From: Verrucomicrobiota bacterium
GTDB taxonomy: Bacteria; Verrucomicrobiota; Verrucomicrobiia; Limisphaerales; CANJSG01
Direction of reading: 5' to 3'
Assembly: GCA_038209745.1 (NCBI GenBank)
Contig: JBBQXJ010000001.1
Span: forward strand, 30,096 to 94,095
DNA: 64,000 nucleotides
Both the position numbers and the translations under genes were made by a program. This document shows, piece by piece, positions 13,618-54,703 of this stretch. Below the pieces are notes generated by a model that saw only the letters and a program-made list of their open reading frames with translations, made no database searches and had not been told where the DNA came from. Numbering within the stretch: the first letter of the stretch is position 1; each line of letters starts with the position of its first letter.

Positions 13618-14499
13618 CTACGTCTTGTTCCGCACAAGGCGCAGTCCGACCGACACCAGCGAGGCCAGTCCGTAGACGATTCCCAAAAACACGACGTCCG
13701 TCGGGCCCACCGGCAGATCCCATTCATAGGCGATCCAAAAACCGAGGAACGCCGAGACCCCACCGATGACCGACGCCAGCACGGTGAACTGGCGCATGTT
13801 CCGGGCGAACAGGTGCGACGTCAGCGCCGGGATCAAAAGAAAACCGAACGAAATCAGCGGCCCCACGCTGAGCACCGCCATGGAAACGGTCAGCCCGATC
13901 AATGCGAAGATCAGCACGTCCCAGAAGACGACGTTCTTCCCCAGCGTGACCGCCATCGCGCGGTCGAAGGAGACCAGCAGGATCTCCTTGTGGAACAGGC
14001 CGAGCACCAGCAGCACGACCCCGAGCGTGACGGCGGTCAGCACCAGGTCGGCGTTGTCGATCGTGATCACCTCGCCCTTCATCAGGTCCAGCCAGCCGAC
14101 CTCCGCATACCGGTTCTTTGAGAGCAGGATGATGCTCAACGCGGAGGCGACGACATAGCCGGCCCCCAGACGCCCCTCGGGCAACCCGCGCCCCCGCCGT
14201 TCCAACACGGCGAACACCATGATGGCGACCAGCGAGAAGAGCGTGGAACCGACGAACGCCACCAGATGTTCGCTGTGGGCCTCGTGCTCCGGCTTCATCG
14301 CCCCCAGCCACATCGGGACGGACAGGGCGATGGCGACACCGGTCGAGGAGATCTGCGGCAGCGCGACACCCATGAAGACGAGCCGTCGCAGGACAAGAAA
14401 GACTCCGACCAACGGACAGGCGAACCCGATGAGCACGCTGGTGTAGACCGAGTTTCGTAGGAGGAAATCGGGCGAGAGGATCTGGTGGAGCGATTCCAT
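13618..14499 (-). CDS. metal (Zn/Mn-type) ABC transporter permease, ABC-3 family
   Basis: About 8 TM helices, adjacent to the ATPase and SBP. ATG 14499 (MESLHQIL) lies 1 nt after the ATPase stop. An alternative start at 14520 would overlap it. Confidence 0.85.
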   Translation of the reverse strand: MESLHQILSPDFLLRNSVYTSVLIGFACPLVGVFLVLRRLVFMGVALPQISSTGVAIALSVPMWLGAMKPEHEAHSEHLVAFVGSTLFSLVAIMVFAVLERRGRGLPEGRLGAGYVVASALSIILLSKNRYAEVGWLDLMKGEVITIDNADLVLTAVTLGVVLLVLGLFHKEILLVSFDRAMAVTLGKNVVFWDVLIFALIGLTVSMAVLSVGPLISFGFLLIPALTSHLFARNMRQFTVLASVIGGVSAFLGFWIAYEWDLPVGPTDVVFLGIVYGLASLVSVGLRLVRNKT

Positions 14500-14500
14500 A

Positions 14501-15205
14501 TCAGCCGATCTCCATTTCAAAAATCTCCGTCATGCGCTCCCGGGTCAGGAGCTCCGCCACGGTGCCGTGGAGAACCTTTCCCTCATGCAGCCACACGACC
14601 TGCTGAGCGTGTTTGCGCACGAGCGGCAGGTCGTGGGTCACCATCAGGATCGTCAGTTTCCGTTCTTCGTGGATGCGCGAGATGAACTGCAGCAAGGAGC
14701 GCGTCGCCGCGACATCCACGCCGGCGGTGGGTTCGTCGAGCACGAGCGCCTCGGGCCGGGTGGCGAGCGCACGGGCGATCAGCACGCGCTGTTTTTGACC
14801 TCCCGACAGGTCGGTGAACTTCTTGTGCGCGAAGCCGTCCGCCGCCGTCGCCTGCAGGCACTCGCGGGCAAAGGCCCGCTCCGACTTCGGCACCCATCGT
14901 CCGGGTCCGATGCGTCCGTAGGCGCCCATCAACGCCACATCAAACCCCGTCAAGGGATAGAGCGGATCGAACTGGCTGGATTGCGGCACGTAGCCGAACC
15001 CGGCGGGCGGATCAATGCGGATGCGGCCCGAGACGGCCGGCTGGAGACCGAGCAGCGTCTTCAGCAAGGTGGACTTGCCGGACCCGTTCGCGCCGAGAAT
15101 GGCGGTGAAGCTGGAACGCTCCACCGCGAGGGAAATGCCGGACAGGAGGGCCTGGCCATCGTAGCCGATCGCCAAGTCGTCCAGCGTGATGATGGGATCG
15201 CTCAT
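14501..15205 (-). CDS. metal ABC transporter ATP-binding protein
   Basis: Walker A GANGSGKST, signature LSGGQKQR, Walker B LVLDEPT. Confidence 0.9.
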   Translation of the reverse strand: MSDPIITLDDLAIGYDGQALLSGISLAVERSSFTAILGANGSGKSTLLKTLLGLQPAVSGRIRIDPPAGFGYVPQSSQFDPLYPLTGFDVALMGAYGRIGPGRWVPKSERAFARECLQATAADGFAHKKFTDLSGGQKQRVLIARALATRPEALVLDEPTAGVDVAATRSLLQFISRIHEERKLTILMVTHDLPLVRKHAQQVVWLHEGKVLHGTVAELLTRERMTEIFEMEIG

Positions 15206-15209
15206 GCCG

Positions 15210-16127
15210 CTATTTCTTCACCGCCCCCACGAACGAACGCACGATATAGTCCATCATCTCGATGTAGGTGTCGGTGTGCGGCACGCCGCCGGGCATGATC
15301 GGGAGTTTGATCAGCGCCGCCCCGGTTTCCTTGGCGATGAGCGAGGGCACCTTCGCGGGGAACTGGGGCTCGCGGACCACGATCGGCACATGCTCGGCCT
15401 TCATGGTGGAGACCAGTTCCTCGATGTGTCGCGGCGTGGGATCAATCCCGGGTTTCAGCTCGATGGTGCCAATATATTTGAACCCGAACCGTTCCGCGAA
15501 GTAGGGCCAGTGTTCGTGGTAGGAGACGAACGCGGTTCCCTTGAGCGGCTCCAGTTCCCGGCTCCACTCGGCGATCTTGGCGTCGAGTTTCGCGAGGTAG
15601 GCGTCGCGGTTGCGCGCGTAGTCCGCCTGATGCTCGGGATCGGCCGTGATCAACGCAACGTAGATGTTCTTGATCGCGGTCTTCGCCAACACCGGGTCAA
15701 GCATGTAGTGCGGATTGCCGTAGGGATGCACGTCGCCTTGCGAGTGGTCGGTGGACGCCGGCACGCCAACGGGCGTGACGCCGGCCGAGCAGTCCACATA
15801 GCCGGGATGGCCGTATTGGATGCGCGGGTTGCGGCTGGCCTCGAGCAATCCGGGCAGAAAGGAATGCTCGCAGCCAAACCCGATCAAGATCACCAGGTCC
15901 GCGCGGTTCAGGCGTGGGACGAAGCTCGGCTTCATCGGCACGCCGTGGGTGTCCTCGATGCCCGTCGCCAGGCTGAAGACATCCACGTGGTCGCCGCCGA
16001 TGTTGCGCGCCAAATCGGCGAGATCGGTCAATGTGGTGACGATACGGATCTTGGCCGCTTGGGCGGATGGGATCGCGAAGGCGAAAGCGCCAACGAGCGC
16101 GAGAAGGTTGAAGAATCGATATTTCAT
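15210..16127 (-). CDS. metal ABC transporter substrate-binding protein (TroA/ZnuA cluster A-I)
   Basis: Signal peptide MKYRFFNLLALVGAFAFAIPSAQA, plus DTHGVP, GDVHPYGNPHYMLDP and YHEHWPYF metal-ligand blocks. Confidence 0.85.
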   Translation of the reverse strand: MKYRFFNLLALVGAFAFAIPSAQAAKIRIVTTLTDLADLARNIGGDHVDVFSLATGIEDTHGVPMKPSFVPRLNRADLVILIGFGCEHSFLPGLLEASRNPRIQYGHPGYVDCSAGVTPVGVPASTDHSQGDVHPYGNPHYMLDPVLAKTAIKNIYVALITADPEHQADYARNRDAYLAKLDAKIAEWSRELEPLKGTAFVSYHEHWPYFAERFGFKYIGTIELKPGIDPTPRHIEELVSTMKAEHVPIVVREPQFPAKVPSLIAKETGAALIKLPIMPGGVPHTDTYIEMMDYIVRSFVGAVKK

Positions 16128-16149
16128 GGGGGTGTTCTCCGTGGTTCGT

Positions 16150-17574
16150 TCACCGCTGCTGCCAGCCGTGGGCATGGGCGCCGATGATCCAGGCCCATTG
16201 CAGATAGACGGCGTCGTCCGAAGGCAGGCCAGAAGACGCGCTGTTTTCCGTGTGGGTGTATTGCAGCCGGAGCTGGTTCCAGTGGCTCACCGCAAAGGTG
16301 AGGTAGGGCGAATAGGCGAACGTCTCGACGGAGTTGTTCTGCGGGCTTTGCACCCAGTCGAAGAGAAATCCGGCGCTCCATTTTCGGTTCCATTTGTAGG
16401 TCGCATAGGAATACAGGCCCAGTGAACCGATGCTGCCGTAGGCTTCGTCCCCGCTCGGCCGGCCGCCGTTCGCCGGATTCAGGCTTCCATCCGGGTCCGT
16501 CCAATAGCGGGTGTCGCCATAGAGAAGCTCCGTTCCCCAGTCGAGCCGGCGGTATTCGTTGTCGGCCAGCGGCACGTAGCTGAACCGCAGATCCAGGCCC
16601 GCGACGCGACGCGCCTTCTCGGTCAACGTGCTGCCGTCCGGCTGGACCAGGACGCCGCCGCGATCCCGCGTGATCGGGTTGATCAAGCCTGACACGCCCG
16701 TCTCCATCTCCAGGTCGGGCGTCAGATCGAAGTAGGTGGAGAGGCGCCCGAAGTAGTTGAGACCGCCCAGAGGACGGTAGGCGCCGGGATTGTTCAGCGG
16801 ACTGCCGCCGCCGAAGCCGTTTCCGAAGCCCGCCACCGCGCTGATGTAGTGGTCCGTCGGCAACAGCCAGCTCAGCTGCGCGCCGTCGGTCCGGGACTCG
16901 CCGCCGATGTATTGGTCGAGCGCCAGCGGCCGGTTCACGAACGGCAGCTCGTGGTCGTGGATGTCCGACAGTTTCCCGAACTCGGCGAAGAACCGGCCCG
17001 CTTTGAGTTCGAGCCCCCAAGGCAGCGAAGTCGTCTGCAGCGCCGCCTCTTCGACGCCCAAGCTCGCTTCGCCCGAGGCCGCATCGGCCGAGGCGTTGAG
17101 CACGGCGTAGCCTTTGGCGAACGGATCGACCGACGCCGAGAAGTCCAACTCCAGTGAACGCTGGAACACATCAAACCCGCCCGCCCGCCCGTTCCCGGTC
17201 TGATCCGAGCCCCGGCTGTTGTAGGAGAACACGGTCTCTCCCACCAAGCCGATGGCCGGATTGAATTCACCGGGGAGGATCTTCTTCTGTGCCTCCACCA
17301 CCGAATCGACCTCTTTCTTCAGGTCCTGTATCTGCGTGGACTCGGGAGTGGCTGCGGCTGGCTGCGGCGCTGGGGGAGCAGATTGGAGTTTCTCAAGCTG
17401 GTGCTGGAGGGAATCGATCTGCTGCCGCTGCTCCTGCGCAGTCTGCTCGAACTTGCGCTGCATTTCTCCGAGCTGTTTCTTCAACTGCTCGATATCGGTC
17501 GTCTCCTGGGCTGCCAGCGGCAAAATGCCGAGGCAGAGGGCCGAAGACAGGCCCACAAGGGTTCTGGATTTCAT
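16150..17574 (-). CDS. outer-membrane beta-barrel (porin-like) protein with N-terminal coiled coil
   Basis: Signal peptide MKSRTLVGLSSALCLGILPLAAQ, then a heptad-rich region (IEQLKKQLGEMQRKFEQTAQEQRQQIDSLQHQLEKLQ). The remaining ~370 aa alternate in beta-strand fashion and are Gly/aromatic-rich. The tail is WAWIIGAHAHGWQQR. Confidence 0.55.
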   Translation of the reverse strand: MKSRTLVGLSSALCLGILPLAAQETTDIEQLKKQLGEMQRKFEQTAQEQRQQIDSLQHQLEKLQSAPPAPQPAAATPESTQIQDLKKEVDSVVEAQKKILPGEFNPAIGLVGETVFSYNSRGSDQTGNGRAGGFDVFQRSLELDFSASVDPFAKGYAVLNASADAASGEASLGVEEAALQTTSLPWGLELKAGRFFAEFGKLSDIHDHELPFVNRPLALDQYIGGESRTDGAQLSWLLPTDHYISAVAGFGNGFGGGSPLNNPGAYRPLGGLNYFGRLSTYFDLTPDLEMETGVSGLINPITRDRGGVLVQPDGSTLTEKARRVAGLDLRFSYVPLADNEYRRLDWGTELLYGDTRYWTDPDGSLNPANGGRPSGDEAYGSIGSLGLYSYATYKWNRKWSAGFLFDWVQSPQNNSVETFAYSPYLTFAVSHWNQLRLQYTHTENSASSGLPSDDAVYLQWAWIIGAHAHGWQQR

Positions 17575-17674
17575 ATGCGATACACCGACGGGGTTTGATT
17601 CAAGGAATGTCGCGGTGCGGCCGCGAAGCCGGTCAAGCTTCAGCGCGTCGCAACTGGGACAGATGGGGGATGAA

Positions 17675-18007
17675 TCAACCCTGCGGTGGACCGCGGGAAT
17701 GATAGGGGAGAACAACAGGGGAGGAAACGACACCAAAGGACGCGGAAAAAACCTCGATCCAAGATTCGGGCTGCCTCGGGAGCGGCCCCACATCGGTCTG
17801 GGCCAGTCCGGTTTCTCCGTTCGCCCAGTGGACAAAGGCGCAGTCGTGGCCGGAGGCCCCGGCATCGGGATGGAGCAGCGGATGAATCGCATCGCCGGCC
17901 GTCAGGAGAAAAACCAGCGCAAGCATCAACGCTCCCGCCAAGCTGCGGCAAACCTTCCATCCCAAGGCGGATCGCGCCTTGTTATGAGAGATTGACGGAG
18001 CGTTCAT
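17675..18007 (-). CDS. small His/Cys-containing single-TM protein, hypothetical
   Basis: 110 aa from ATG 18007, with TM helix SLAGALMLALVFLLTAG followed by DAIHPLLHPDAGASGHDCAFVHW. Coding status uncertain. Confidence 0.35.
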   Translation of the reverse strand: MNAPSISHNKARSALGWKVCRSLAGALMLALVFLLTAGDAIHPLLHPDAGASGHDCAFVHWANGETGLAQTDVGPLPRQPESWIEVFSASFGVVSSPVVLPYHSRGPPQG

Positions 18008-18163
18008 TTTTTCGACGGGAGACAAACCCGGGGTGCCTTGCCGCTTGGATCGGGCAAACCTTTCGGATCGTCCGACCGACATCGGAACAGTCGACCGGCA
18101 AGATGGTGGACTTGAGGGCGCAGTCAACTCAATGCCTTCCCCGACACGCCGGACGCCTTCTTC

Positions 18164-18388
18164 TCAGAACTGGAACGGCTCGTTCATCCGGCCGCACTGG
18201 GGACACTTGGACAGGTCCACATCCGAGTCGTCGGTGTAGGTGTAGCCGCACTTCTCGCAACGGAAGATGCGGTCGGGCGCTTCGGTGGACCGGAACCGGC
18301 GTCGACGGAACTCCCATTGCACCACCAAGGCCAAGAGCCCTGCCAGAAGCACGATCAAATAAAGCGCGATGTGGGCTTCGGGTGTCAC
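18164..18388 (-). CDS. small TM + zinc-ribbon protein
   Basis: GTG start at 18388 overlaps the TonB-like stop (GTGA). TM helix IALYLIVLLAGLLALVV, then CEKCGYTYTDDSDVDLSKCPQCG (CxxC-x16-CxxC). Confidence 0.45.
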   Translation of the reverse strand: MTPEAHIALYLIVLLAGLLALVVQWEFRRRRFRSTEAPDRIFRCEKCGYTYTDDSDVDLSKCPQCGRMNEPFQF

Positions 18389-19185
18389 GGTTGCGGGGCT
18401 CCCTGGGGCAACTGCGTGTTCCACCGGATCCGGAGGAGCCCCGTTGCGAGCGGAGCGCCTCGATTCGGCTTGAACGCCAAATCCAGCGCCGTTTTCACCG
18501 CCAATTGATCCGCCAGATGGGCCACTTCGGACCCACCGCTGCGCTCGGCCAACCGTGCGGTCAGCACCCGGCCTTCGGCATTTACCGCGACGGCCACCAC
18601 GGAGTCCTTCAACAGTTCGCCGGAGGTCTGGTCTGGAAGAGGCGGCAACGGCTCTTCCAGACGGTCGCGCAAGACCCTGTCCAGCTCGGCGCTGGACTCC
18701 GTCCTCAGCGGTGCGGGCAGCGGCAGAACCGGCGGCTGGAGAAGCGCGGGCAGATCGGATTCCTCGCTCGCGGCGAGCAACGGCCGCGATGCTTGTGGAA
18801 GCATCGCGTAGGCTTGGCCGAGCGTATTGGTCTGGAGCGAGAGCCAGTGGGTGGCGTCGACCCATTCAACCCGCACCTGGGGCAGAGCCGGCAGTTGCAG
18901 CCAGCCTTCGCCGGAAAAGCCGAGGTATCCGGGCAGCACGGCTCCGGCCGGATCGGGCACTCCGAAGAACGTCGCCAAGGCCTGCGGCGAAATCGCAGCG
19001 GGAATCCAGCGCACGGATGGGCCTTTGGGTTGCCGCGCCGCCATCTCGTCCGGCCGGCTGCCCGTGGCGTAGATGAAGCCCACCTGAACCACAAAAAACA
19101 CCACGCCCCAGACGACCATCTTGCGGACGGACCATCCCGCGTCTACCGCCGGAGTCTCCTTCTCGTTGGCGCCGGGATGTGTCAC
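18385..19185 (-). CDS. TonB/TolA-like energy transducer (GTG start)
   Basis: N-terminal TM helix (MVVWGVVFFVVQVGFIY), a Pro-rich middle (LPALLQPPVLPLPAPL...LPPLP) and a C-terminal TonB_C-like block (VAVAVNAEGRVLTARLAERSGGSEVAHLADQLAVKTALDLAFKP). Lies directly after exbD. Confidence 0.6.
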   Translation of the reverse strand: MTHPGANEKETPAVDAGWSVRKMVVWGVVFFVVQVGFIYATGSRPDEMAARQPKGPSVRWIPAAISPQALATFFGVPDPAGAVLPGYLGFSGEGWLQLPALPQVRVEWVDATHWLSLQTNTLGQAYAMLPQASRPLLAASEESDLPALLQPPVLPLPAPLRTESSAELDRVLRDRLEEPLPPLPDQTSGELLKDSVVAVAVNAEGRVLTARLAERSGGSEVAHLADQLAVKTALDLAFKPNRGAPLATGLLRIRWNTQLPQGAPQP

Positions 19186-19188
19186 GGG

Positions 19189-19851
19189 CTAGCGGATCCT
19201 GGTGTTTTCAAACGCGCCCGGCCGAGCGGCGAGCAGGATCTCCTGGATGCCGGCTTCACGGGCCACCTCGGTGAGTCGGATCAGGGTGGCGTTGTCCACC
19301 GCCCGGTCCGCCAAGACCACGAGCGTGACCGGATCCGGCCGCGCTCCGACGGCGTCGCTGAGGGAGATGCGCAGCTGGGCTTCGTTGACGAGCCGGTTCT
19401 GGAAGAAGAACTGGCCGGAGAAATTCACCGCGACGGCCACCGACCGGTTCGCCGTGCCGCCCAGCTCTCCGCGCGCCATCGGCAGTTCGATCCGGCCCGC
19501 CGCTTCCACGAGCTTTCGGACGGAGTCGACCAGCCCACGAGGCGCCGTGTCCGTGGAGACCACGCGGACCGTGCTGCCCGCCGGGAGTTCCGCGAGGCGA
19601 CGACGGAGCGTGGGCAAGTCGTTGGTGAGATAGGCGCTGTCCGCGAACTGCACGACGCCGGTGCCGGTGACCTGGATGACCGCCGTGACGGCGTTCAGTC
19701 CCGAGGCCGAACGATCGAGACGGATCGGGATCCCGGGCGTGTAGACGAGCCCGGCCAACACAACGAAGAAAAGCAGCAGGAACAGCACCGAGACCAGCGG
19801 CGCGACGTTGATCTCGCCCCGGAAGACCTTCGCGTTGCGCGGGAATTTCAT
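19189..19851 (-). CDS. ExbD/TolR family protein with two tandem periplasmic domains
   Basis: GEINVAPLVSVLFLLLFFVV TM anchor, 220 aa (typical ExbD is about 135 aa). Two ExbD-like repeats, roughly aa 40-124 and 131-210. ATGA overlap with exbB (19848-19851). Confidence 0.8.
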   Translation of the reverse strand: MKFPRNAKVFRGEINVAPLVSVLFLLLFFVVLAGLVYTPGIPIRLDRSASGLNAVTAVIQVTGTGVVQFADSAYLTNDLPTLRRRLAELPAGSTVRVVSTDTAPRGLVDSVRKLVEAAGRIELPMARGELGGTANRSVAVAVNFSGQFFFQNRLVNEAQLRISLSDAVGARPDPVTLVVLADRAVDNATLIRLTEVAREAGIQEILLAARPGAFENTRIR

Positions 19852-20471
19852 TCCGTGGGCACGGTGATGTCGCCGACGAGGTTCAGCGCCTCGGTGGACG
19901 CCTGTTCCATGTCGAGCACGATGGCGTTCACACGGCCGACGAGGAAGTTGTAGCCTCCATACGAGACGATCGCGACGACCAGACCGCCGGCGGTGCAGAT
20001 GAGCGCTTCCCAGACCCCGCTCGAAAGGCTGCTGACGCTGGCCATGAGGCCCGCGGCTTCCAGCTGGCGAAACACTTTCATCAGACCCAGGACCGTTCCC
20101 AGCAAACCGACGAGCGGCGAAATGTGGGCCACGGTGGCGAGGATGTTCAGCCGCTTCTCCAGCCGGGGCACTTCGAGGAATCCGGCGTCTTCCAAAGCCT
20201 GGCGCACGCCGTCGCGGCCGCGATCACGGTTCAACACCGCCACCTTGACCAGACGGGGCACGGGGCCGGCGGTGGCGTCGCAGATCGCGACGGCCTCGAC
20301 GATGTTGTCGCGTTTGAGGACGTTGCGGACGCCGTTGAGGAACTCGGCGGCGTTGATCTGCGCGCGGTGGTAGTGGAGCTGACGTTCGATGAAGACCGTC
20401 AGCCCGACGGCGCTCAGCGCGAGCAGCACCCACATGAGGGGCCCGCCCTGCGAAAAGAAACTCGGCAACAT
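19848..20471 (-). CDS. MotA/TolQ/ExbB proton-channel protein
   Basis: 3 TM helices and the conserved ISPLVGLLGTVLGLMKVF...VWEALICTAGGLVVAIVSY. Start at ATG 20471 (MLPSFFSQGGPLMWVLL); the ORF extends to 20525. Confidence 0.85.
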   Translation of the reverse strand: MLPSFFSQGGPLMWVLLALSAVGLTVFIERQLHYHRAQINAAEFLNGVRNVLKRDNIVEAVAICDATAGPVPRLVKVAVLNRDRGRDGVRQALEDAGFLEVPRLEKRLNILATVAHISPLVGLLGTVLGLMKVFRQLEAAGLMASVSSLSSGVWEALICTAGGLVVAIVSYGGYNFLVGRVNAIVLDMEQASTEALNLVGDITVPTE

Positions 20472-20582: not shown

Positions 20583-21266
20583 TCAGACCTTCGGCCGCGC
20601 CACGATCCGCACCTCCCGCTCCGGTCGGATCGCATGCAGGAGTCCACGCAGCAGTCTGAAGCCGCCTTCTCCGAGCTTCATCCGCTTGGCCAAAACACCG
20701 GCGAAACGGTCATAGCCGAACCGTCCCACGCCGGCCTTTTCCACCTGCCAACCGCATTCCGTCGCCAGCGCTCCGAGTGTCTGGACGTTCCACGAGTAGA
20801 GATGATGGTTCGGCTCCGCCGGGTCGTAGCGGCGGAATTTGCGGCCGGTTTCCAGCGGGACATGCAGCAGCAACCGGCCCCCGGGCTTCAGCAGCCGCTT
20901 CAGCTCGACCAGCACCTTCGCCGGCTCCAGCACATGCTCCAACGCATGATGGCAGATCAGCACATCGGCGCACTCTTGGGGGAGATCCTCGATTCGTGGA
21001 ACAAACTCGATGCCGGCGACCGTCAATTCATCGACGAGGAAGCCGGAAACGTCGTGCCCCAGCTTCCGGGCGCACGCCAGCTCCCGGAGGTTCCATCCGG
21101 CGCCCACGCCGAATTCCAGCACCGTGTCCGTGGGTCGAACGAACGGGCGAAACTTCTCCGCTCTCAGCCGCGCCACCCACGGCAGCGCTTCCGCCGGCAG
21201 GGCGCGCTTCACGCCGTGATAATGGCGGCCGGCATCGTCGCGATAGTGCTGTTCGGCATCGGGCAC
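20583..21266 (-). CDS. class I SAM-dependent methyltransferase (GTG start)
   Basis: Motif I VLEFGVGAGWN, followed by ADVLICHHALEHV and LKPGGRLLL. Confidence 0.8.
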   Translation of the reverse strand: MPDAEQHYRDDAGRHYHGVKRALPAEALPWVARLRAEKFRPFVRPTDTVLEFGVGAGWNLRELACARKLGHDVSGFLVDELTVAGIEFVPRIEDLPQECADVLICHHALEHVLEPAKVLVELKRLLKPGGRLLLHVPLETGRKFRRYDPAEPNHHLYSWNVQTLGALATECGWQVEKAGVGRFGYDRFAGVLAKRMKLGEGGFRLLRGLLHAIRPEREVRIVARPKV

Positions 21267-48935: not shown

Positions 48936-49481
48936 TCAGGGCTTGGCGACGCCGATGACCGCCTGGGCGACGCGCTTGCCGGCGTTGCCCGTGGGCTGGG
49001 TCTTCAGGTCGTCGGCATCCGCGTGGATGATCAAGCCGCGGCCGATGATCGAATCGGCGCCCTCGAACGAGAGCTGCTTGTCCACCGTGTCGAGCATGGC
49101 GTGGCCGTTCTCGTCCGCGACCAGATTGCCCAGATCGCCCTCGTGGCGCATGTCCGCCATCGGGCCGGCGTGCGGGTGGCCGCCGGGATTGAAGTGGCCG
49201 CCGGTGCCGGTGCCGTCCTTGGCCGAGATGTCGCCGAACTGGTGGATGTGGAATCCGTGCCCGCCGGGCTTGAGCCCCATCACATGGGCCACGACGTGGA
49301 CGCCGCCGTCCACCTTGGTGAACTTGACGGAACCGTGGACGGAGTTGCCCTCGGTCGCGGAGATCACGGCGATGGCGGCGGTGACCGGTTCGGCGGCCGA
49401 GGAGACCAGCGGCGAAGCGATGAGCGACGCGGCCAGCAGGCCGGCAAGACGGAAAGAGGAGGAGACGGAGCGAAGTTTCAT
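48936..49481 (-). CDS. sodC: periplasmic Cu,Zn superoxide dismutase
   Basis: Signal peptide MKLRSVSSSFRLAGLLAASLIASPLVSSA. Also HGFHIHQFGD, GGHFNP, HEGDLGN and GNAGKRVAQAVIG. Confidence 0.9.
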   Translation of the reverse strand: MKLRSVSSSFRLAGLLAASLIASPLVSSAAEPVTAAIAVISATEGNSVHGSVKFTKVDGGVHVVAHVMGLKPGGHGFHIHQFGDISAKDGTGTGGHFNPGGHPHAGPMADMRHEGDLGNLVADENGHAMLDTVDKQLSFEGADSIIGRGLIIHADADDLKTQPTGNAGKRVAQAVIGVAKP

Positions 49482-49777
49482 GGCAGGAATTTGAGTGGTT
49501 GGCTTGAAAACACCGGACAGTCCTGCCCGGCACTCTTTTGAGAACCTAAGCACCTTCCGCCCGCCGCGCCAACCCATGAGCGGCACTTTCGATGATTGCT
49601 TCTTTTTGTCCTCCGTCGCCCGCGCTCGTGTTTTTGACGGGAATCGGTGTCTCCATGTTTCCTCGGCGAACTCGCTATTGATCCCGATCCTTTGGTGCCA
49701 AACAAGGGCGAAGCCTTGATCGCGGAGTTTGGCCTTCTGAGCCGGGCTCGGCGCCGCCGATGAATTTGATCCGTGAT

Positions 49778-50887
49778 CTACCGGACCCGCACAAACACCT
49801 TCCCCGGCAGTTGCTTGATCAGCCGTTTCATCTCCAAGCCCAGCAGCGTCACGGACACGGTGGGACTGGGTAGGGCGCTGCGCTGGATCAGTTCGTCGAT
49901 CGAGGTCTCCGTTTCGCTGAGGAGCTCGTAGAGGCGCTGCTCGGTGTCGTTCAGGGCGATGGTGGGAAGTTCGCCGGTCTCGGCCGCGCTGGCGGGACGA
50001 TTGCTCGCCGGGAAGAGGTATTCGAACTCGCTCAGGATGTCCTCCGCGCCTTCGCAGAGCTTCGCGCCTTTCTTGATCAGTTCGTGGCAACCCTTGCTGC
50101 GCGGCGAATCGATGCGGCCCGGCACTGCGAAGACCTGGCGGCCGTAGTCGGCGGCCATGTTGGCGGTGATGAGCGCGCCGCTGGTCAGGTTCGCCTCCAC
50201 CACCACGGTGCCGAGCGTCATTCCGGCGACGATGCGGTTGCGGATGGGGAAGGTCTGCTTGTCGGCCTTGCGGTTGAAAGGGAACTGGCTGATCAGCGCG
50301 CCGCCGCTCTCGACGATGCGATGGAAGAGGTCGCGGTTCTCGGACGGGAACACCAGATTGATGCCCGTGCCCAGCACCGCGACGGTCCGGCCCTTGGCCT
50401 GCAAGGCGCCTTGATGCGCCGCCGAATCGACGCCGCGCGCGCCGCCGCTCACCACGGTCACTCCGATGTGCGCGAGCTGGTAGGCGAGCTTCCGGGCGAT
50501 GTCGGTGCCGTAGGGCGTGACCATCCGCGATCCGACCAGGGCCACGGCCATGCGATCCTGGGTCGAAAGTTCGCCCTTCACGTAGAGCACGATGGGCGGG
50601 TCGTAGATCTCCTTGAGCGAGGGCGGATAGAGTTCGTCGTCCTGGGTGACGACCGTGCAGCCGAATTCCTCGATCCGCTTCATCTCCCCGGCCAGGTCGA
50701 CGTCCTTTTCCCATGAGGAAATGGCCTCGGCCACTTCCTGGCCGATCCCTTGGACGTGCTGCAGCTGTTGGCGGGAAGCGCCCAGGATCGACGGCGCGTC
50801 GCCGAAGTGTTCGATCAACTTGCGCAGCCGGACGGGACCGACGTGCTCGATCATGTTCAGCGCGACGAACGCTTCCTTGGGATCCAT
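49778..50887 (-). CDS. dprA: DNA-processing protein DprA
   Basis: GSRMVTPYG, SGGARGVDSAAHQGAL and FPIRNRIVAGM, with a C-terminal winged-helix-like tail. Confidence 0.9.
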   Translation of the reverse strand: MDPKEAFVALNMIEHVGPVRLRKLIEHFGDAPSILGASRQQLQHVQGIGQEVAEAISSWEKDVDLAGEMKRIEEFGCTVVTQDDELYPPSLKEIYDPPIVLYVKGELSTQDRMAVALVGSRMVTPYGTDIARKLAYQLAHIGVTVVSGGARGVDSAAHQGALQAKGRTVAVLGTGINLVFPSENRDLFHRIVESGGALISQFPFNRKADKQTFPIRNRIVAGMTLGTVVVEANLTSGALITANMAADYGRQVFAVPGRIDSPRSKGCHELIKKGAKLCEGAEDILSEFEYLFPASNRPASAAETGELPTIALNDTEQRLYELLSETETSIDELIQRSALPSPTVSVTLLGLEMKRLIKQLPGKVFVRVR

Positions 50888-51025
50888 GCGCCGGATCTTT
50901 CGGCTGCGGATCGATCTGTCAAAGGCTGGTTTTGGCCACGCCTGCTCCGGGCACAGTCCCTTCCATCAAGAGGCCGACCATTGTCCCGGTGAATTCCGTT
51001 GAGCCCCGCCCAGTCGGGAGGAACG

Positions 51026-54000
51026 ATGTCGCCCATGCCCTTGATCCAGTCGTTCCGCGCGGCCCATGTCCGTCTAGCCTTGTTATGGGTGCTCGGCCAG
51101 CTGGCCACGGGCCCGGGCGCGATGGCAGCCGATCCGTTCGAAGCCATGGTGCGCGAGACCGAGCCGCTGCCACCGGCCGAGGAGCGGAAGACCTTCTCCC
51201 TGCCGCCCGGTTTCGACATCCAGCTCGTCGCCTCCGAGCCGGACATCAACAAGCCGATGAACATGGCCTTCGACGCCACCGGCCGGCTCTGGGTCACCAC
51301 GTCGATCGAGTATCCCTTTCCGGCGAAGGACCGACCCGGCCGTGACCGCTTGATGATCTTCGAGGACTTCGGGCCCGACGGCCGTGCGCGCAAAGTCACC
51401 CAGTTCGCCGACGGCCTGAACATCCCCATCGGCGTCTATCCCTTCCGGTCCGCACGCAGCCCGGGCGTTAGCCCGAAAGAACCTTCCTCCAATCAAGGAC
51501 GCTCTCTTCTGCCTGAAGGCGGGACTACGAACGAAACGTGGAAGGCCGTCGTCTGGAGCATTCCCTACATCTGGCTGCTGGAAGACACCACCGGCGACGG
51601 CAAGGCTGACAAGCGCACCCAGCTCTACGGCCCGTTCGACGTGTCCCGCGACACCCACGGCAACCAATCCTCCTTCCGACGCGGCTTCGACGGCTGGATC
51701 TACGCCACGCACGGCTTCAACAACGACTCGTGGATCACGAACCGCGACGGCTCGGTGGTCCACCTGAACTCCGGCAACAGCTACCGCTTCCGGCCCGATG
51801 GTTCCAAGCTGGAGCACCACACCCATGGGCAGGTGAATCCCTTCGGCCTCGCGTGGGATCCGCGCGGCAACCTCTACTCCAGCGACTGCCACAGCGCCCC
51901 GATCTACCAACTGCTCGACGGCGGCTATTATCCCAGTTTCGGCAAGCCCGACGATGGACTCGGCTTCGCGCCGGTGATGATCGAGCACGCCCACGGCAGC
52001 ACCGCCATCGACGGGGCGCTCTACTACGCGGACAATCTTTGGCCCGCCGAATACCAGGACACGTTCTTCATCGGCAACGTCATGACCAGCCGGTTGAACC
52101 GGGACAAGATCACCTTCCACGGCTCCACGCCCAAGGCGACCGAACAGCCCGACTTCCTCACCACGACCGATCCATGGTTCCGCCCGGTCGATAACCAGCT
52201 CGGCCCCGACGGTGCGCTCTACGTGGCCGACTTCTACAACCGGATCATCGGCCACTACGAAGTGCCGCTGACCCATCCCGGCCGCGACCACGAGCGCGGC
52301 CGCATCTGGCGCGTGGTCTATACGAACGCCGTTGTAGGACGGGCTTCCAGCCCGGCAAGTCCCGCGAACACCTCTCTCCGTCCCGCCGCGCTTCCCTCCG
52401 ATCTCGCCAGCCTCCTCGAGGAGCTCGCTTCTCCCAACCTCACGCGCCGTCTGCTGGCCCAGCACGAGATAGAAGACCGTTTCGATGACACCGCCGTCGC
52501 CCGGCTGAAAACGACCGCCCAAGGCGTCTATGACTTCCCGAACGGTGACAAGCGTTTCGCCCAAGTCCACGCCATGTGGGCGCTGCGGAATCTGGACCGG
52601 CTCGACGACGAATCCCTTCGTGCGGGCCTGCCACCGGCCGACCCCCTATTAAAGGTTCATGCGATGCGGATTCTCGCCGAGATGGGCTGGCGAGAGGCGA
52701 GCAGCCATCCGGGAACGCGCCAGCACGACAGCGTCGGCAATCTGCGCGGCGCCATCCTTCTGAGCCTCGGTGACGACAACGCGCTGGTGCGGCGCTGCGC
52801 AGCGGAAGCGCTGACCGCCTGGCCCGACGCTGGAAACCTTCCGCCGCTTCTCGGAGCTCTGTCCAAGACTGACCGCGCCGACAGCCATCTCCTCTATGTT
52901 CTCCGCAAGGCCGTCCGGGACACCCTCGAAGTCCCGGGCGCCTTCGACGAACTTGCCAAACTCCCGGAAGCCCAACGCGCGCTCGTCGCCGATATCCTGC
53001 CTGCCGTCCCGACCGCCGCCGCAGCCCAATACATCCTTTCCAACTTGCCGCAGCTCGGAACCGATTCCGCCCAGATCGGCGCGCTCCTCCAACACGCCGC
53101 GCGTTACGGCGACGCGGAGAGCGCGCCCGCCATCGCACGGTTCGCCCTGGACCGCTACGCAGCCGATCCAGCGATGCAGCTCGCGCTGATCAAATCCGTC
53201 CGTTCCGGCCTCGATCAACGCGGCGCCGCGACCCCCGAGGCCGTCACTGAGTGGGGTCGGCAACTCGCCGTCAAACTACTCGATGGGGTGGGAGCCGCCG
53301 TCTCCGATTGGCGGGCTCTGCCGCTGGAAGGCGCGGGACAATCCGCAGTGCCGTGGGTCTTCCAAGACCGCCCTTGCGCCGAAGGCCAGACCACTCGCGT
53401 CATCAGCTCGCTCGCGCCCGGCGGCGAAGCGTTGACCGGAATTCTCCGCAGCAAACGCTTCAGTCTGCCGCAGAGCCTCGGCTTCTACTTGGCCGGGCAC
53501 GACGGCTATCCGGACAAGCCGCTGAAACACGTGAACAAGGTCGTGCTCAAGTCCTCGGACGGAACCGTCCTCCGCGAAGCCTCTCCGCCCCGCAACGACA
53601 TCGCGGTGAAGGTCGAGTGGACCTTCACCGCAGCCGAACGGGGCCGCGAAGCGTTCCTGGAAGTCATCGATGGCGACACCGGCGACGCCTACGCATGGCT
53701 GGCCATTGGCCGGATCGAGCCGGCCGTCGTCCAGCTCCCGGCGATCGCGCCCCACGAACTCGCGGGCCGGTTGGCGGATGCCGTCCAGCTTGCCGCCGCG
53801 TTTCCATCCACTGCGGCCACGGCCCAGCTGCGGGCCGTGGCCGACGGACCCCTCGCCGCCAAGGAACAGGCGCTCGTCCTGAAAACGCTGCTCGCCCAGG
53901 ACGTTTCCTACGCAGCAGCACTGGTGCCCCGTCTCCTGCCCGGCGCTCCCGACGAAGCGGTGCTTGCGACCGTCTTGGCGGAGACGGATCAACCCGAGGC

Positions 54001-54703
54001 CCGGACCGCCGTGGTCGGGTTTCTGGGAACCGCTCCGGCGCGGTTGCAGTCGTCCGTGGCGTGGGTCATGGCGGGATCCAAATCGGGCGCGGAAGCCCTC
54101 CTGACGGGGATGGCCGCGGGCAAGATCTCGGCCCGCGTCCTCGGCGAGGCCAAGCTGGTGGAGCGTCTGCGGGCCTCGAATCCCGACGACTTCACCGCGC
54201 GGCTGGCCGCCTTGACCAAGGACCTGCCGCCGGCGGATGGCGAGCGGCAGAAGCGGGTCGATACGCGGCGCGCCGGTCTGGATCCGGCCCATGCGGACGT
54301 CGCCCACGGTCGCCAGATCTTCCAGCAGACCTGTGCCGCCTGCCATCGGATCGCGGGCGAAGGCGGGTTGATCGGGCCGCAGCTCGACGGCATCGGCCTC
54401 CGGGGCGCGGAGCGGCTCTGTGAGGACATCTTGGATCCGAACCGCAACGTCGATTCGGCCTTCCGCCAAACGTTGCTGACCCTGAAAGATGACGAAGTGG
54501 TCAGCGGTCTCTTCCGTCGCGAAGAGGGCGCGACGCTCGTGCTGGCCGATGCGACCGGCGCTGAGATCAAGGTTCAGAAGAACCAGGTGAAGGCGCGGAT
54601 CGAATCCACCACATCGCTCATGCCCGACCTCTTCGGCGAGGCCATCGCGCCGGCCGATTTCAACGATCTGATCGCATGGTTGATGACGCAGCGGGGCCGG
54701 TAG
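51026..54703 (+). CDS. PVC-type heme-binding CxxCH protein (membrane-bound-dehydrogenase-like propeller + HEAT repeats + C-terminal cytochrome c)
   Basis: ATG 51026 is preceded by GGGAGG. N-terminal FDIQLVASEPDINKPMNMAFDATGRLWV, HEAT-like repeats (ALVRRCAAEALTAWPD), and C-terminal GRQIFQQTCAACHRIAGEGG...LMP. Confidence 0.8.
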   Translation: MSPMPLIQSFRAAHVRLALLWVLGQLATGPGAMAADPFEAMVRETEPLPPAEERKTFSLPPGFDIQLVASEPDINKPMNMAFDATGRLWVTTSIEYPFPAKDRPGRDRLMIFEDFGPDGRARKVTQFADGLNIPIGVYPFRSARSPGVSPKEPSSNQGRSLLPEGGTTNETWKAVVWSIPYIWLLEDTTGDGKADKRTQLYGPFDVSRDTHGNQSSFRRGFDGWIYATHGFNNDSWITNRDGSVVHLNSGNSYRFRPDGSKLEHHTHGQVNPFGLAWDPRGNLYSSDCHSAPIYQLLDGGYYPSFGKPDDGLGFAPVMIEHAHGSTAIDGALYYADNLWPAEYQDTFFIGNVMTSRLNRDKITFHGSTPKATEQPDFLTTTDPWFRPVDNQLGPDGALYVADFYNRIIGHYEVPLTHPGRDHERGRIWRVVYTNAVVGRASSPASPANTSLRPAALPSDLASLLEELASPNLTRRLLAQHEIEDRFDDTAVARLKTTAQGVYDFPNGDKRFAQVHAMWALRNLDRLDDESLRAGLPPADPLLKVHAMRILAEMGWREASSHPGTRQHDSVGNLRGAILLSLGDDNALVRRCAAEALTAWPDAGNLPPLLGALSKTDRADSHLLYVLRKAVRDTLEVPGAFDELAKLPEAQRALVADILPAVPTAAAAQYILSNLPQLGTDSAQIGALLQHAARYGDAESAPAIARFALDRYAADPAMQLALIKSVRSGLDQRGAATPEAVTEWGRQLAVKLLDGVGAAVSDWRALPLEGAGQSAVPWVFQDRPCAEGQTTRVISSLAPGGEALTGILRSKRFSLPQSLGFYLAGHDGYPDKPLKHVNKVVLKSSDGTVLREASPPRNDIAVKVEWTFTAAERGREAFLEVIDGDTGDAYAWLAIGRIEPAVVQLPAIAPHELAGRLADAVQLAAAFPSTAATAQLRAVADGPLAAKEQALVLKTLLAQDVSYAAALVPRLLPGAPDEAVLATVLAETDQPEARTAVVGFLGTAPARLQSSVAWVMAGSKSGAEALLTGMAAGKISARVLGEAKLVERLRASNPDDFTARLAALTKDLPPADGERQKRVDTRRAGLDPAHADVAHGRQIFQQTCAACHRIAGEGGLIGPQLDGIGLRGAERLCEDILDPNRNVDSAFRQTLLTLKDDEVVSGLFRREEGATLVLADATGAEIKVQKNQVKARIESTTSLMPDLFGEAIAPADFNDLIAWLMTQRGR

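Follow-up and report, generated by a model that had tools for sequence, protein, structure and literature searches.

The window analysed here, a stretch of 64,000 nucleotides (nt) of contig JBBQXJ010000001.1 (assembly GCA_038209745.1, a Verrucomicrobiota bacterium), carries at positions 13618-20471 nine genes, all on the minus strand, in which an ExbB/ExbD/TonB-like motor stands next to an outer-membrane protein (OMP) and a metal importer of the ATP-binding cassette (ABC) type. The question raised by this locus is whether the motor and the importer work together. The initial annotation had proposed that they form a complete trans-envelope metal-uptake route in which the OMP takes the place of a TonB-dependent receptor, and had offered as an alternative a Tol/TonB-like system merely adjacent to the importer. 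Synteny favours this alternative. We consider it likely that the region comprises two independent modules whose proximity is peculiar to this lineage, and that the second of them, a five-gene cassette, is a probable TonB-independent zinc uptake system under the control of a putative arrest peptide.

Genomic context of the motor and importer genes

Twenty OMP homologues were aligned, and the alignment was used to collect 80 genomic loci from Verrucomicrobiota, Nitrospirota, Thermodesulfobacteriota, Acidobacteriota, Planctomycetota and others (at least five phyla), against which the nine proteins of the window were searched by tblastn. The gene order OMP, substrate-binding protein (SBP), ATPase and permease was kept in 80/80 loci, as far as the contigs reach, and the cassette proteins share 55-82% identity even between phyla (70-82% for the permease over the 80 loci). 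An exbB, exbD or tonB-like gene adjoining the cassette was found in none of these 80 loci. No conserved gene family was found at the flanks of the cassette, the most frequent one there occurring in 11/80 loci, and the cassette is mobile and has spread between phyla.

The cassette comprises a fifth gene, since the small open reading frame (ORF) rich in His and Cys that precedes the OMP gene belongs to it as its leader peptide, a point that had been missed before. A homologue of this upstream ORF (uORF) was located directly upstream of the OMP gene in 73 of the 74 loci having enough upstream sequence; a hidden Markov model built from the first matches found 56 of the 74, and a motif scan recovered 17 of the remaining 18.

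The motor genes behave as a unit of their own. In the loci of the TonB-like homologues (L081-L088), exbB (207 amino acids, aa), exbD (220 aa), the tonB-like gene (263-266 aa) and a zinc-ribbon gene (74 aa) stand together without the cassette. Their upstream neighbours match those of the window (methyltransferase, PTA, DRTGG/CbiA and aminotransferase), and the genes that follow downstream vary, being a succinate-dehydrogenase-like cluster, a BBP2 barrel gene followed by Ldh, or genes on the opposite strand. In L090, the closest relative, whose uORF is 69% identical to that of the window, three opposite-strand genes (a 58-aa ORF, bPH_5 and Band_7) separate the zinc-ribbon gene from the uORF, and thus the motor module and the cassette cannot be one transcript there. 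The lack of adjacency in the 80 loci, the separate four-gene unit of the relatives and the split in L090 all speak against the functional link between motor and importer; a lack of synteny in relatives had been named beforehand as one of the outcomes that would refute this link, and the motor and OMP-ABC halves turned out not to be syntenic.

The annotation of the region itself was accurate. Coordinates and sequence confirmed the nine minus-strand ORFs with their overlaps and gaps: exbB and exbD overlap by 4 nt (ATGA), the tonB-like gene begins 3 nt past exbD, the zinc-ribbon ORF overlaps the stop codon of the tonB-like gene through GTGA, and the gaps are of 22 nt between the OMP and SBP genes, 4 nt between the SBP and ATPase genes, and 1 nt between the ATPase and permease genes. 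The boundary between both modules, as placed by synteny, is the 156-nt gap at 18008-18163 (-), in which neither a terminator nor a sigma-70-type promoter was detected (sigma-70 scan; terminator-like sites at chance level). Co-directionality alone is weak evidence, because an unrelated methyltransferase gene (20583-21266), located upstream of exbB, lies on the same strand as the nine genes.

The outer-membrane protein

The OMP gene (16150-17574, -) encodes a protein of 474 aa with a signal peptide, a periplasmic coiled coil and a predicted 16-strand porin-like barrel. The TonB-like protein, the uORF product and the OMP gave no match in Pfam or NCBIfam, and a profile search of the OMP against the Protein Data Bank (PDB) returned coiled-coil noise only. 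The structural model of the OMP, obtained with AlphaFold2 (AF2), shows two long N-terminal helices followed by 16 long strands, with a helix-containing loop between strands 5 and 6. The top Foldseek matches of this model were all porins of 16-18 strands (among them OmpM1, OmpT/U, Omp32, OprP and DcaP), with probability 1.0 and about 10-13% identity. The predicted strands and the porin matches agree with the earlier description of this protein as a porin-like barrel with a coiled coil.

The OMP does not have the features of a TonB-dependent transporter (TBDT): it has neither a PF07715 plug nor a 22-strand PF00593 barrel, and it has no conserved coupling to ExbB-ExbD-TonB. In agreement with the initial annotation, no TonB-dependent receptor was identified in the window, where none of the ten largest ORFs contains a Plug or TonB_dep_Rec domain. 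The OMP has more than 1700 homologues, and its superfamily contains 2861 clusters at E <= 1e-3 in a library clustered at 50% identity. In 76 OMP sequences, H206-D207-H208-E209 in the loop between strands 5 and 6, H431, the HxH pair H467 and H469, and many acidic residues are invariant. The mature N-terminus, QETTDIEQL in the window and conserved as Q-E-T-x, leads straight into the coiled coil.

Among known porins, DcaP from A. baumannii and OprP/OprO are the closest in architecture. The OMP of the window would share with them its predicted 16-strand barrel and the short helices in the strand 5-6 loop, and with DcaP also the periplasmic N-terminal coiled coil. In contrast to them, the OMP has no detectable sequence similarity beyond the low identity of the structural alignments, its gene is strictly coupled to a metal importer, and its invariant His/Asp/Glu motifs would point to a filter for metal cations rather than for anions or dicarboxylates. 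It would be expected to act as do the TBDTs ZnuD and ZnuK/ZnuL/ZnuM, partners of ZnuABC, in letting zinc pass the outer membrane towards a ZnuA-type importer, but the plug, the 22-strand barrel and the conserved ExbBD-TonB link of these receptors are lacking.

The importer and its probable substrate

The three genes that follow encode an SBP of cluster A-I and ZnuA type (15210-16127, -; PF01297, 3e-56), a ZnuC/AztA-like ATPase (14501-15205, -; PF00005, ABC_tran) and, as the last gene of the cassette, an ABC-3 permease similar to ZnuB/AztB (13618-14499, -; PF00950, 4e-39). Their best NCBIfam matches are AztC, AztA (6e-53) and AztB, respectively, with all equivalog scores far below the cut-offs. 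The residues H61, H140 and H204 of the SBP align with the metal-binding His motifs of Synechocystis ZnuA and are invariant in 77 sequences, and an Ala occupies the position aligned with the YfeA "isDk" motif; we take the aligned residues of ZnuA and YfeA to be metal ligands. As judged from this alignment, the ligand set is of the zinc type, with three His and without the Asp/Glu pair of the Mn/Fe SBPs.

The importer resembles ZnuABC/AztABC in its PF01297 SBP with three His, its ABC-3 permease, its ABC ATPase and the gene order SBP-ATPase-permease. It differs from them in having, in the same operon, genes for a leader peptide and a dedicated porin-like OMP, in the short DHSQGDVHPYGNPH loop that the SBP has instead of a long His-rich loop, and in additional invariant residues of the SBP (H88, H128, H134 and C113). 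With D132 and C86, which are also invariant in the family beyond the three ZnuA ligands, these residues suggest a second metal site or a disulfide. Our literature searches for a porin coupled to ZnuABC gave only papers on mycobacterial MspD and on TBDTs.

A related zinc operon in Vibrio

A tblastn search of the OMP against plasmid records matched chromosome 2 of Vibrio campbellii (L091, NZ_CP050465). The matching OMP of 380 aa (L091 6929-8071) aligns over the whole barrel (E = 3e-23, 26% identity) and is followed by a ZnuA-family protein, which shares 27% identity and the unusual DxSxGDxHxxGNPH loop with the SBP of the window, and then by an ABC-3 permease. Two perfect TGTTAT-N3-ATAACA boxes, of which 0.01 would be expected by chance, precede the OMP gene, and their arms match the Zur boxes of Caulobacter (PMC4176598). 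Judged by its gene content, gene order and species, this locus seems to be omr-znuA2-znuB2, a cluster described in V. campbellii, V. parahaemolyticus and V. vulnificus. The V. parahaemolyticus operon (VP_RS21430-21420) responds to zinc limitation with a 283- to 1033-fold induction (PMC9817125), and its ZnuA2 (Vpa1307) is needed for growth when zinc is depleted (PMC3794297).

Both loci have an OMP gene, of one superfamily, immediately followed by the gene for a ZnuA-subfamily SBP, as well as an ABC-3 permease gene, and the Vibrio locus is linked to zinc. They differ in that the Vibrio cluster has neither an ATPase gene nor a leader peptide and is controlled at the transcriptional level through Zur, and in that the Vibrio OMP lacks the N-terminal coiled coil and carries HMHTD in place of the HDHE of the window. 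The earlier assignment of a porin-like, non-TBDT OMP to a metal ABC importer is thus borne out by the 80 loci across phyla and by this distant zinc operon.

The Vibrio omr product also contains a His-rich loop (EFEDHDHGHADEHGHDHSHGA). Its label as a TonB-dependent receptor looks wrong, because the protein has 380 aa and no Plug or TBDT domain, and appears to be an annotation error. The small transmembrane (TM) and periplasmic proteins ZrgD/ZrgE were also considered as Vibrio counterparts and rejected, as they belong to a MacB-like system (PMC9820375).

The uORF encodes a putative arrest peptide

The uORF (17675-18007, -), the first gene of the cassette, encodes a CruR/CutF-like (DUF2946-like) protein of 110 aa, as indicated by its homologues and their alignment. 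The members of the family show a basic N-terminus, one TM helix, a His/Cys cluster and a nearly invariant C-terminal RAPP. In the window, the hydrophobic stretch after the basic N-terminus is SLAGALMLALVFLLTAG, regarded as an export signal by inspection of the sequence and not by a dedicated predictor. The metal cluster reads HPLLHPDAGASGHDCAFVH, and the alignment delimits in it a putative metal-sensing motif, H42-x3-H46-x-D48-x5-H54-D-C56-x3-H60 (17828-17884, -), in which H42 and C56 are invariant and H46 nearly invariant. The relatives of other phyla have FHHH[DE]D..H.[DE]C-x-x-C at this position, and CxxC is present in the uORFs that head the cassettes of Nitrospirota, Thermodesulfobacteriota and other phyla. 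The verrucomicrobial relatives carry C-A-V-T plus LHxLIHxDA; in the verrucomicrobial uORFs the second Cys is lost and the His cluster is kept.

The C-terminus of the uORF product is RGPP-QG-stop. The RGPP motif (R105-P108; 17684-17695, -), recognised by comparison with the family, lies two codons before the stop. The motif is RAPP in 55/59 members and RGPP in 4/59, with a tail of 1-11 residues (2 in the window). Wherever CxxC exists, 44-45 residues intervene between the Cys motif and RAPP, and the distance from the first Cys to the arrest motif is 47-48 residues in 51/59 members and 48 in the window. The uORF always stands first in the cassette and is separated from the OMP gene by an intergenic region of 100 nt in the window and of about 50-250 nt in the relatives.

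These features recall the DUF2946 proteins CruR and CutF, exported nascent peptides that sense copper by CxxC/CxxxC and, at a RAPP or Pro-rich motif near their C-terminus, make the ribosome stall, the downstream genes being controlled by Rho termination in the case of CruR and by a stem-loop masking the ribosome-binding site in the case of CutF (PMC9426467; PMC9973294; bioRxiv 10.1101/2025.02.05.636593). The 45-residue spacing between CxxC and RAPP is a hallmark of DUF2946, and CruR has 45 (PMC9426467). Both RGPP and RAPP are proven arrest cores, RGPP giving the most robust arrest among the RAPP-like cores, and both are strongly avoided in proteomes unless they serve arrest (PMC12992588).

Like CruR (B. 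pertussis Bp2923) and CutF (R. capsulatus), the uORF is a small exported first ORF with a Cys/His motif about 45 residues before a RAPP-type motif, followed by a long structured intergenic region ahead of an envelope metal-homeostasis gene. Unlike them, it has one Cys and a His cluster, carries RGPP for RAPP, falls below the Pfam threshold, precedes genes for a porin and a ZnuABC-type importer, and is likely to have zinc and not copper as its ligand. PF11162 (DUF2946) gave weak matches in 7/24 relatives of the uORF (best E = 0.0022) and in three profile hits. The uORF is, by these comparisons, a divergent sister group of CruR/CutF rather than a scored member. The text searched in the three DUF2946/RAPP papers mentions neither ABC transporters nor porins, and a search for zinc, made in the two papers other than that on CruR, gave no mention of it.

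Further genes for RAPP leader peptides are located downstream of the permease gene or on the opposite strand in three loci (L021 14302-14640, L061 14171-14491 and L008 9006-9338, on the minus strand); each of these extra copies may head a further regulated gene.

The leader RNA and regulatory sequences

The 100-nt gap between the uORF and the OMP gene (17575-17674, -) is a structured leader according to RNA folding. The segment of 136 nt that begins with the RGPP codons and extends slightly beyond the OMP start has a minimum free energy of -49.6 kcal/mol, compared with -36.9 +/- 3.9 for shuffled sequences (z = -3.27; 0/200 shuffles as stable). The 5' arm of the main helix is formed by the codons of RGPP-QG-stop, its 3' arm ends 3 nt before the AUG of the OMP gene, and past the uORF stop lies a tract rich in C and poor in G. 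The arms of this helix are conserved in the two closest relatives, L089 and L090. A different leader is found in 15 verrucomicrobial relatives, with a 9-bp hairpin right after the stop that shows compensatory changes in 6/9 pairs, and with a UCCG:UGGA helix (anti-Shine-Dalgarno:Shine-Dalgarno) that covers the Shine-Dalgarno sequence. The leaders of the window and of these relatives differ, and their logic is alike.

Among the regulatory sequences of the window, the Zur pattern gave one 2-mismatch match at chance level, located inside the OMP gene. Fur-family regulators are encoded in 6-7/80 cassette loci and are adjacent to the cassette in only one; they are recognisable as members of the family, without a distinction between Zur, Fur and PerR. 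In six loci of verrucomicrobial relatives (L015, L016, L019, L025, L012 and L021), about 20-100 nt upstream of the uORF, we noticed a promoter-like CTTGCC-N17-TATATT whose -10 element is overlaid by a palindrome of 18 bp (GTTTGC-TATATT-GCAAAC) and which is accompanied by an additional TTTGCAAT half-site. This palindrome looks like the operator of a repressor and has no counterpart in the window.

Proposed mechanism and alternative explanations

According to the model that we propose, Zn2+ would diffuse through a cation-selective 16-strand porin whose pore loop carries the invariant His-Asp-His-Glu, the three-His SBP would capture it in the periplasm, and the ABC transporter would pump the ion into the cytoplasm, TonB energy not being used. 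Control would act after the start of transcription: the nascent exported leader peptide would stall its own ribosome at RGPP, two codons before the stop, at a moment when the His/Cys motif 45 residues upstream would have just emerged from the ribosomal exit tunnel. By analogy with CruR, metal scarcity would lead to stalling and the downstream genes would stay on; metal binding would release the stall, and the structured C-rich leader would then shut off the OMP and importer genes. This model builds on the gene content, the synteny, the motifs with their spacing, the RNA structure, the predicted porin fold and the zinc-type ligand set, which are seen in the data; the metal, the arrest of the ribosome and the direction of control are inferred. 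With regard to the earlier proposal of a complete trans-envelope metal route, a path from the OMP to the cytoplasm without a TBDT is plausible, and it is the ExbB/ExbD/TonB part that falls away.

A bolder formulation, to which we give a little less than even weight, holds that the uORF product is the first zinc-responsive RAPP/RGPP arrest-peptide sensor and that it controls an uncharacterised family of TonB-independent, zinc-selective porins lined by His/Asp/Glu, hard-wired to ZnuABC in a five-gene cassette that has spread over at least five phyla; the Vibrio omr gene would then be mis-annotated. In the literature searched, we found no description of a ZnuABC-type importer combined with an arrest-peptide leader and an uncharacterised porin family.

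Several points weigh against the proposed system. In the leader peptide, the window has C56-A-F-V and not CxxC, and no PF11162 match appears even at E <= 1, while all characterised DUF2946 members sense copper; the three-His site of the SBP can also bind Cu(II), Ni or Co. The confidence of the OMP model is moderate (predicted local distance difference test, pLDDT, 65.5; predicted TM-score, pTM, 0.59), and the presumptive pore position of HDHE derives from the strand order and not from coordinates. The simplest form of control, in which a ribosome sitting on RGPP frees the OMP start, was tried and rejected: when the leader was folded in silico with the ribosome footprint blocked, the 3' arm re-paired elsewhere and the probability of being unpaired at positions -14 to +3 fell from 0.41 to 0.19. 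We therefore propose only that a ribosome at RGPP must remodel the leader, and the on/off direction of control is taken from CruR by analogy. No Zur-type box was found in the regulatory regions of the window with a proteobacterial pattern. Finally, no terminator was detected in the 156-nt gap, and read-through from the motor module could still occur in this organism.

Zinc is the best-supported substrate, and the main rival is copper owing to the precedent of CruR. A role of the cassette and leader peptide in the handling of copper, or of some other soft metal (Ni, Co), instead of zinc seems to us unlikely, although several observations would fit it: the uORF members of other phyla retain CxxC, and the window encodes copper enzymes, COX1 and a Cu/Zn superoxide dismutase domain. 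The verrucomicrobial uORFs, however, have lost the second Cys and kept the His cluster, and the SBP carries the three-His set of ZnuA and has AztC/ZnuA as its best match. In addition, many cassette hosts are strict anaerobes (Syntrophales, Thermodesulfovibrionales), and such organisms would be expected to need little copper. From the literature, copper is the metal sensed by CruR and CutF, and most DUF2946 operons are linked to it (PMC9426467, PMC9973294); His-only CutF-like clusters have been linked to Ni/Co HupE/UreJ (PMC9973294), and one of the three DUF2946/RAPP papers suggests that some CutF-like proteins sense Ni or Co; on the other side stands the homologous Vibrio operon, whose boxes match published Zur boxes and which responds to zinc (PMC9817125, PMC3794297).

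A second alternative takes the 110-aa His/Cys protein as a stable membrane-anchored periplasmic metallochaperone, or as a sensor subunit of the transporter, with an incidental or structural RAPP/RGPP end. The signal anchor and the conserved ligand cluster facing the periplasm would suit such a protein, as would the extra copies that L021 and L061 carry past the permease gene, a position less readily explained by a leader function, and the constrained RNA fold that does not support simple unmasking. We nevertheless regard it as rather more doubtful than the copper alternative, given that R[AG]PP is nearly invariant at 1-11 residues from the stop and at a fixed distance of 44-45 residues from the Cys motif, that the RAPP and RGPP cores are avoided in proteomes as described above (PMC12992588), and that the uORF always opens the cassette, with a structured leader of 50-250 nt behind it. 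CruR and CutF, moreover, are undetectable as proteins in vivo (PMC9426467, PMC9973294). An arrest peptide remains our preferred interpretation of the uORF.

The motor module

The first gene of the motor module encodes an ExbB/TolQ-like proton channel of 207 aa (19848-20471, -; PF01618, 7e-30). Its best NCBIfam match is TolQ, far below the cut-off, and since the scores of the four equivalogs TolQ, TolR, ExbB and ExbD are all far below their cut-offs, a TonB-type and a Tol-type motor are not distinguishable. The second gene encodes an ExbD/TolR-like protein of 220 aa (19189-19851, -; PF02472, 9e-14) with two periplasmic ExbD-like stretches: Pfam PF02472 covers residues 12-119, and the NCBIfam models of TolR and ExbD match residues 13-74 and 120-207, respectively. 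ExbD proteins usually have 130-140 aa, and the length of 220 aa is conserved in all the relatives.

The TonB-like protein of 266 aa (18385-19185, -) has an N-terminal TM segment, without the His of the SxxxH motif, a Pro-rich spacer and a weak TonB-C-like end. It does not match PF03544, and only six homologue clusters were found. Its sole PDB profile matches are TonB C-terminal domains, which are marginal (E = 0.7-0.8), and its AF2 model, of low confidence (pLDDT 44.6), ends in beta-beta-alpha-beta. The fourth gene (18164-18388, -) encodes a protein of 74 aa with a TM segment and a CxxC..CxxC zinc ribbon (rubredoxin-like match, 4e-6). In the relatives this gene always overlaps the tonB-like gene, and none of the relatives of the module lacks it; the 74-aa protein may be an unrecognised fourth subunit of the ExbBD-TonB-like unit. 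As far as its sequences indicate, the motor module is a narrowly distributed, putative TonB/Tol-like energising unit.

In L083-L086, a same-strand gene for a 394-aa beta-barrel protein of the BBP2 family (PF07642) is located about 630 nt past the zinc-ribbon gene. This neighbour is a non-TBDT barrel beside the motor module in a second lineage, and it could be a coincidence or a hint of a client.

That this motor energises the porin-like OMP, for example via its coiled coil, and that the nine genes form one TonB-dependent metal-uptake operon would accord with their common direction and short gaps, the lack of a detected terminator in the 156-nt gap, the conserved Q-E-T-x and the BBP2 gene in L083-L086, but it is very improbable in view of the synteny results given above, of an OMP that is plug-less, has 16 predicted strands and matches passive porins, of cassette hosts with unrelated or no nearby ExbBD genes, and of a Vibrio receptor label that is only an annotation string on a protein of 380 aa without a Plug/TBDT domain.

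Other genes of the window

A protein of 592 aa (48936-50714, -) has its Cu/Zn superoxide dismutase domain only in the C-terminal part (residues 459-587), and no domain is assigned to its first 450 residues. The window also encodes a PSD/PSCyt (DUF1585-1595) protein (61140-63704, +) and a 1234-aa protein with DUF7133 and cytochrome c domains (50999-54703, +). Both the PSD/PSCyt and DUF7133 families are presumably associated with the genomes of Planctomycetota and Verrucomicrobiota, which fits the taxonomic placement of the window.

Biological implications

This region illustrates that tight co-directional spacing alone can mimic an operon. To our knowledge, TonB-dependent receptors and unspecific porins are the only routes known to let zinc through the outer membrane. 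A porin family that has no Pfam or NCBIfam model and is locked to a ZnuABC-type importer would be a candidate for a passive and selective zinc channel, and it includes the most strongly zinc-induced gene of the Zur regulon of V. parahaemolyticus (about 1000-fold; PMC9817125). With this cassette, the range of the metal-sensing arrest leaders represented by CruR and CutF, hitherto copper efflux and TBDT operons, would come to include an ABC importer, and probably zinc as a metal. The cassette would also offer two solutions for its own control, Zur boxes in Vibrio and an arrest peptide elsewhere, and thus a natural comparison between them.

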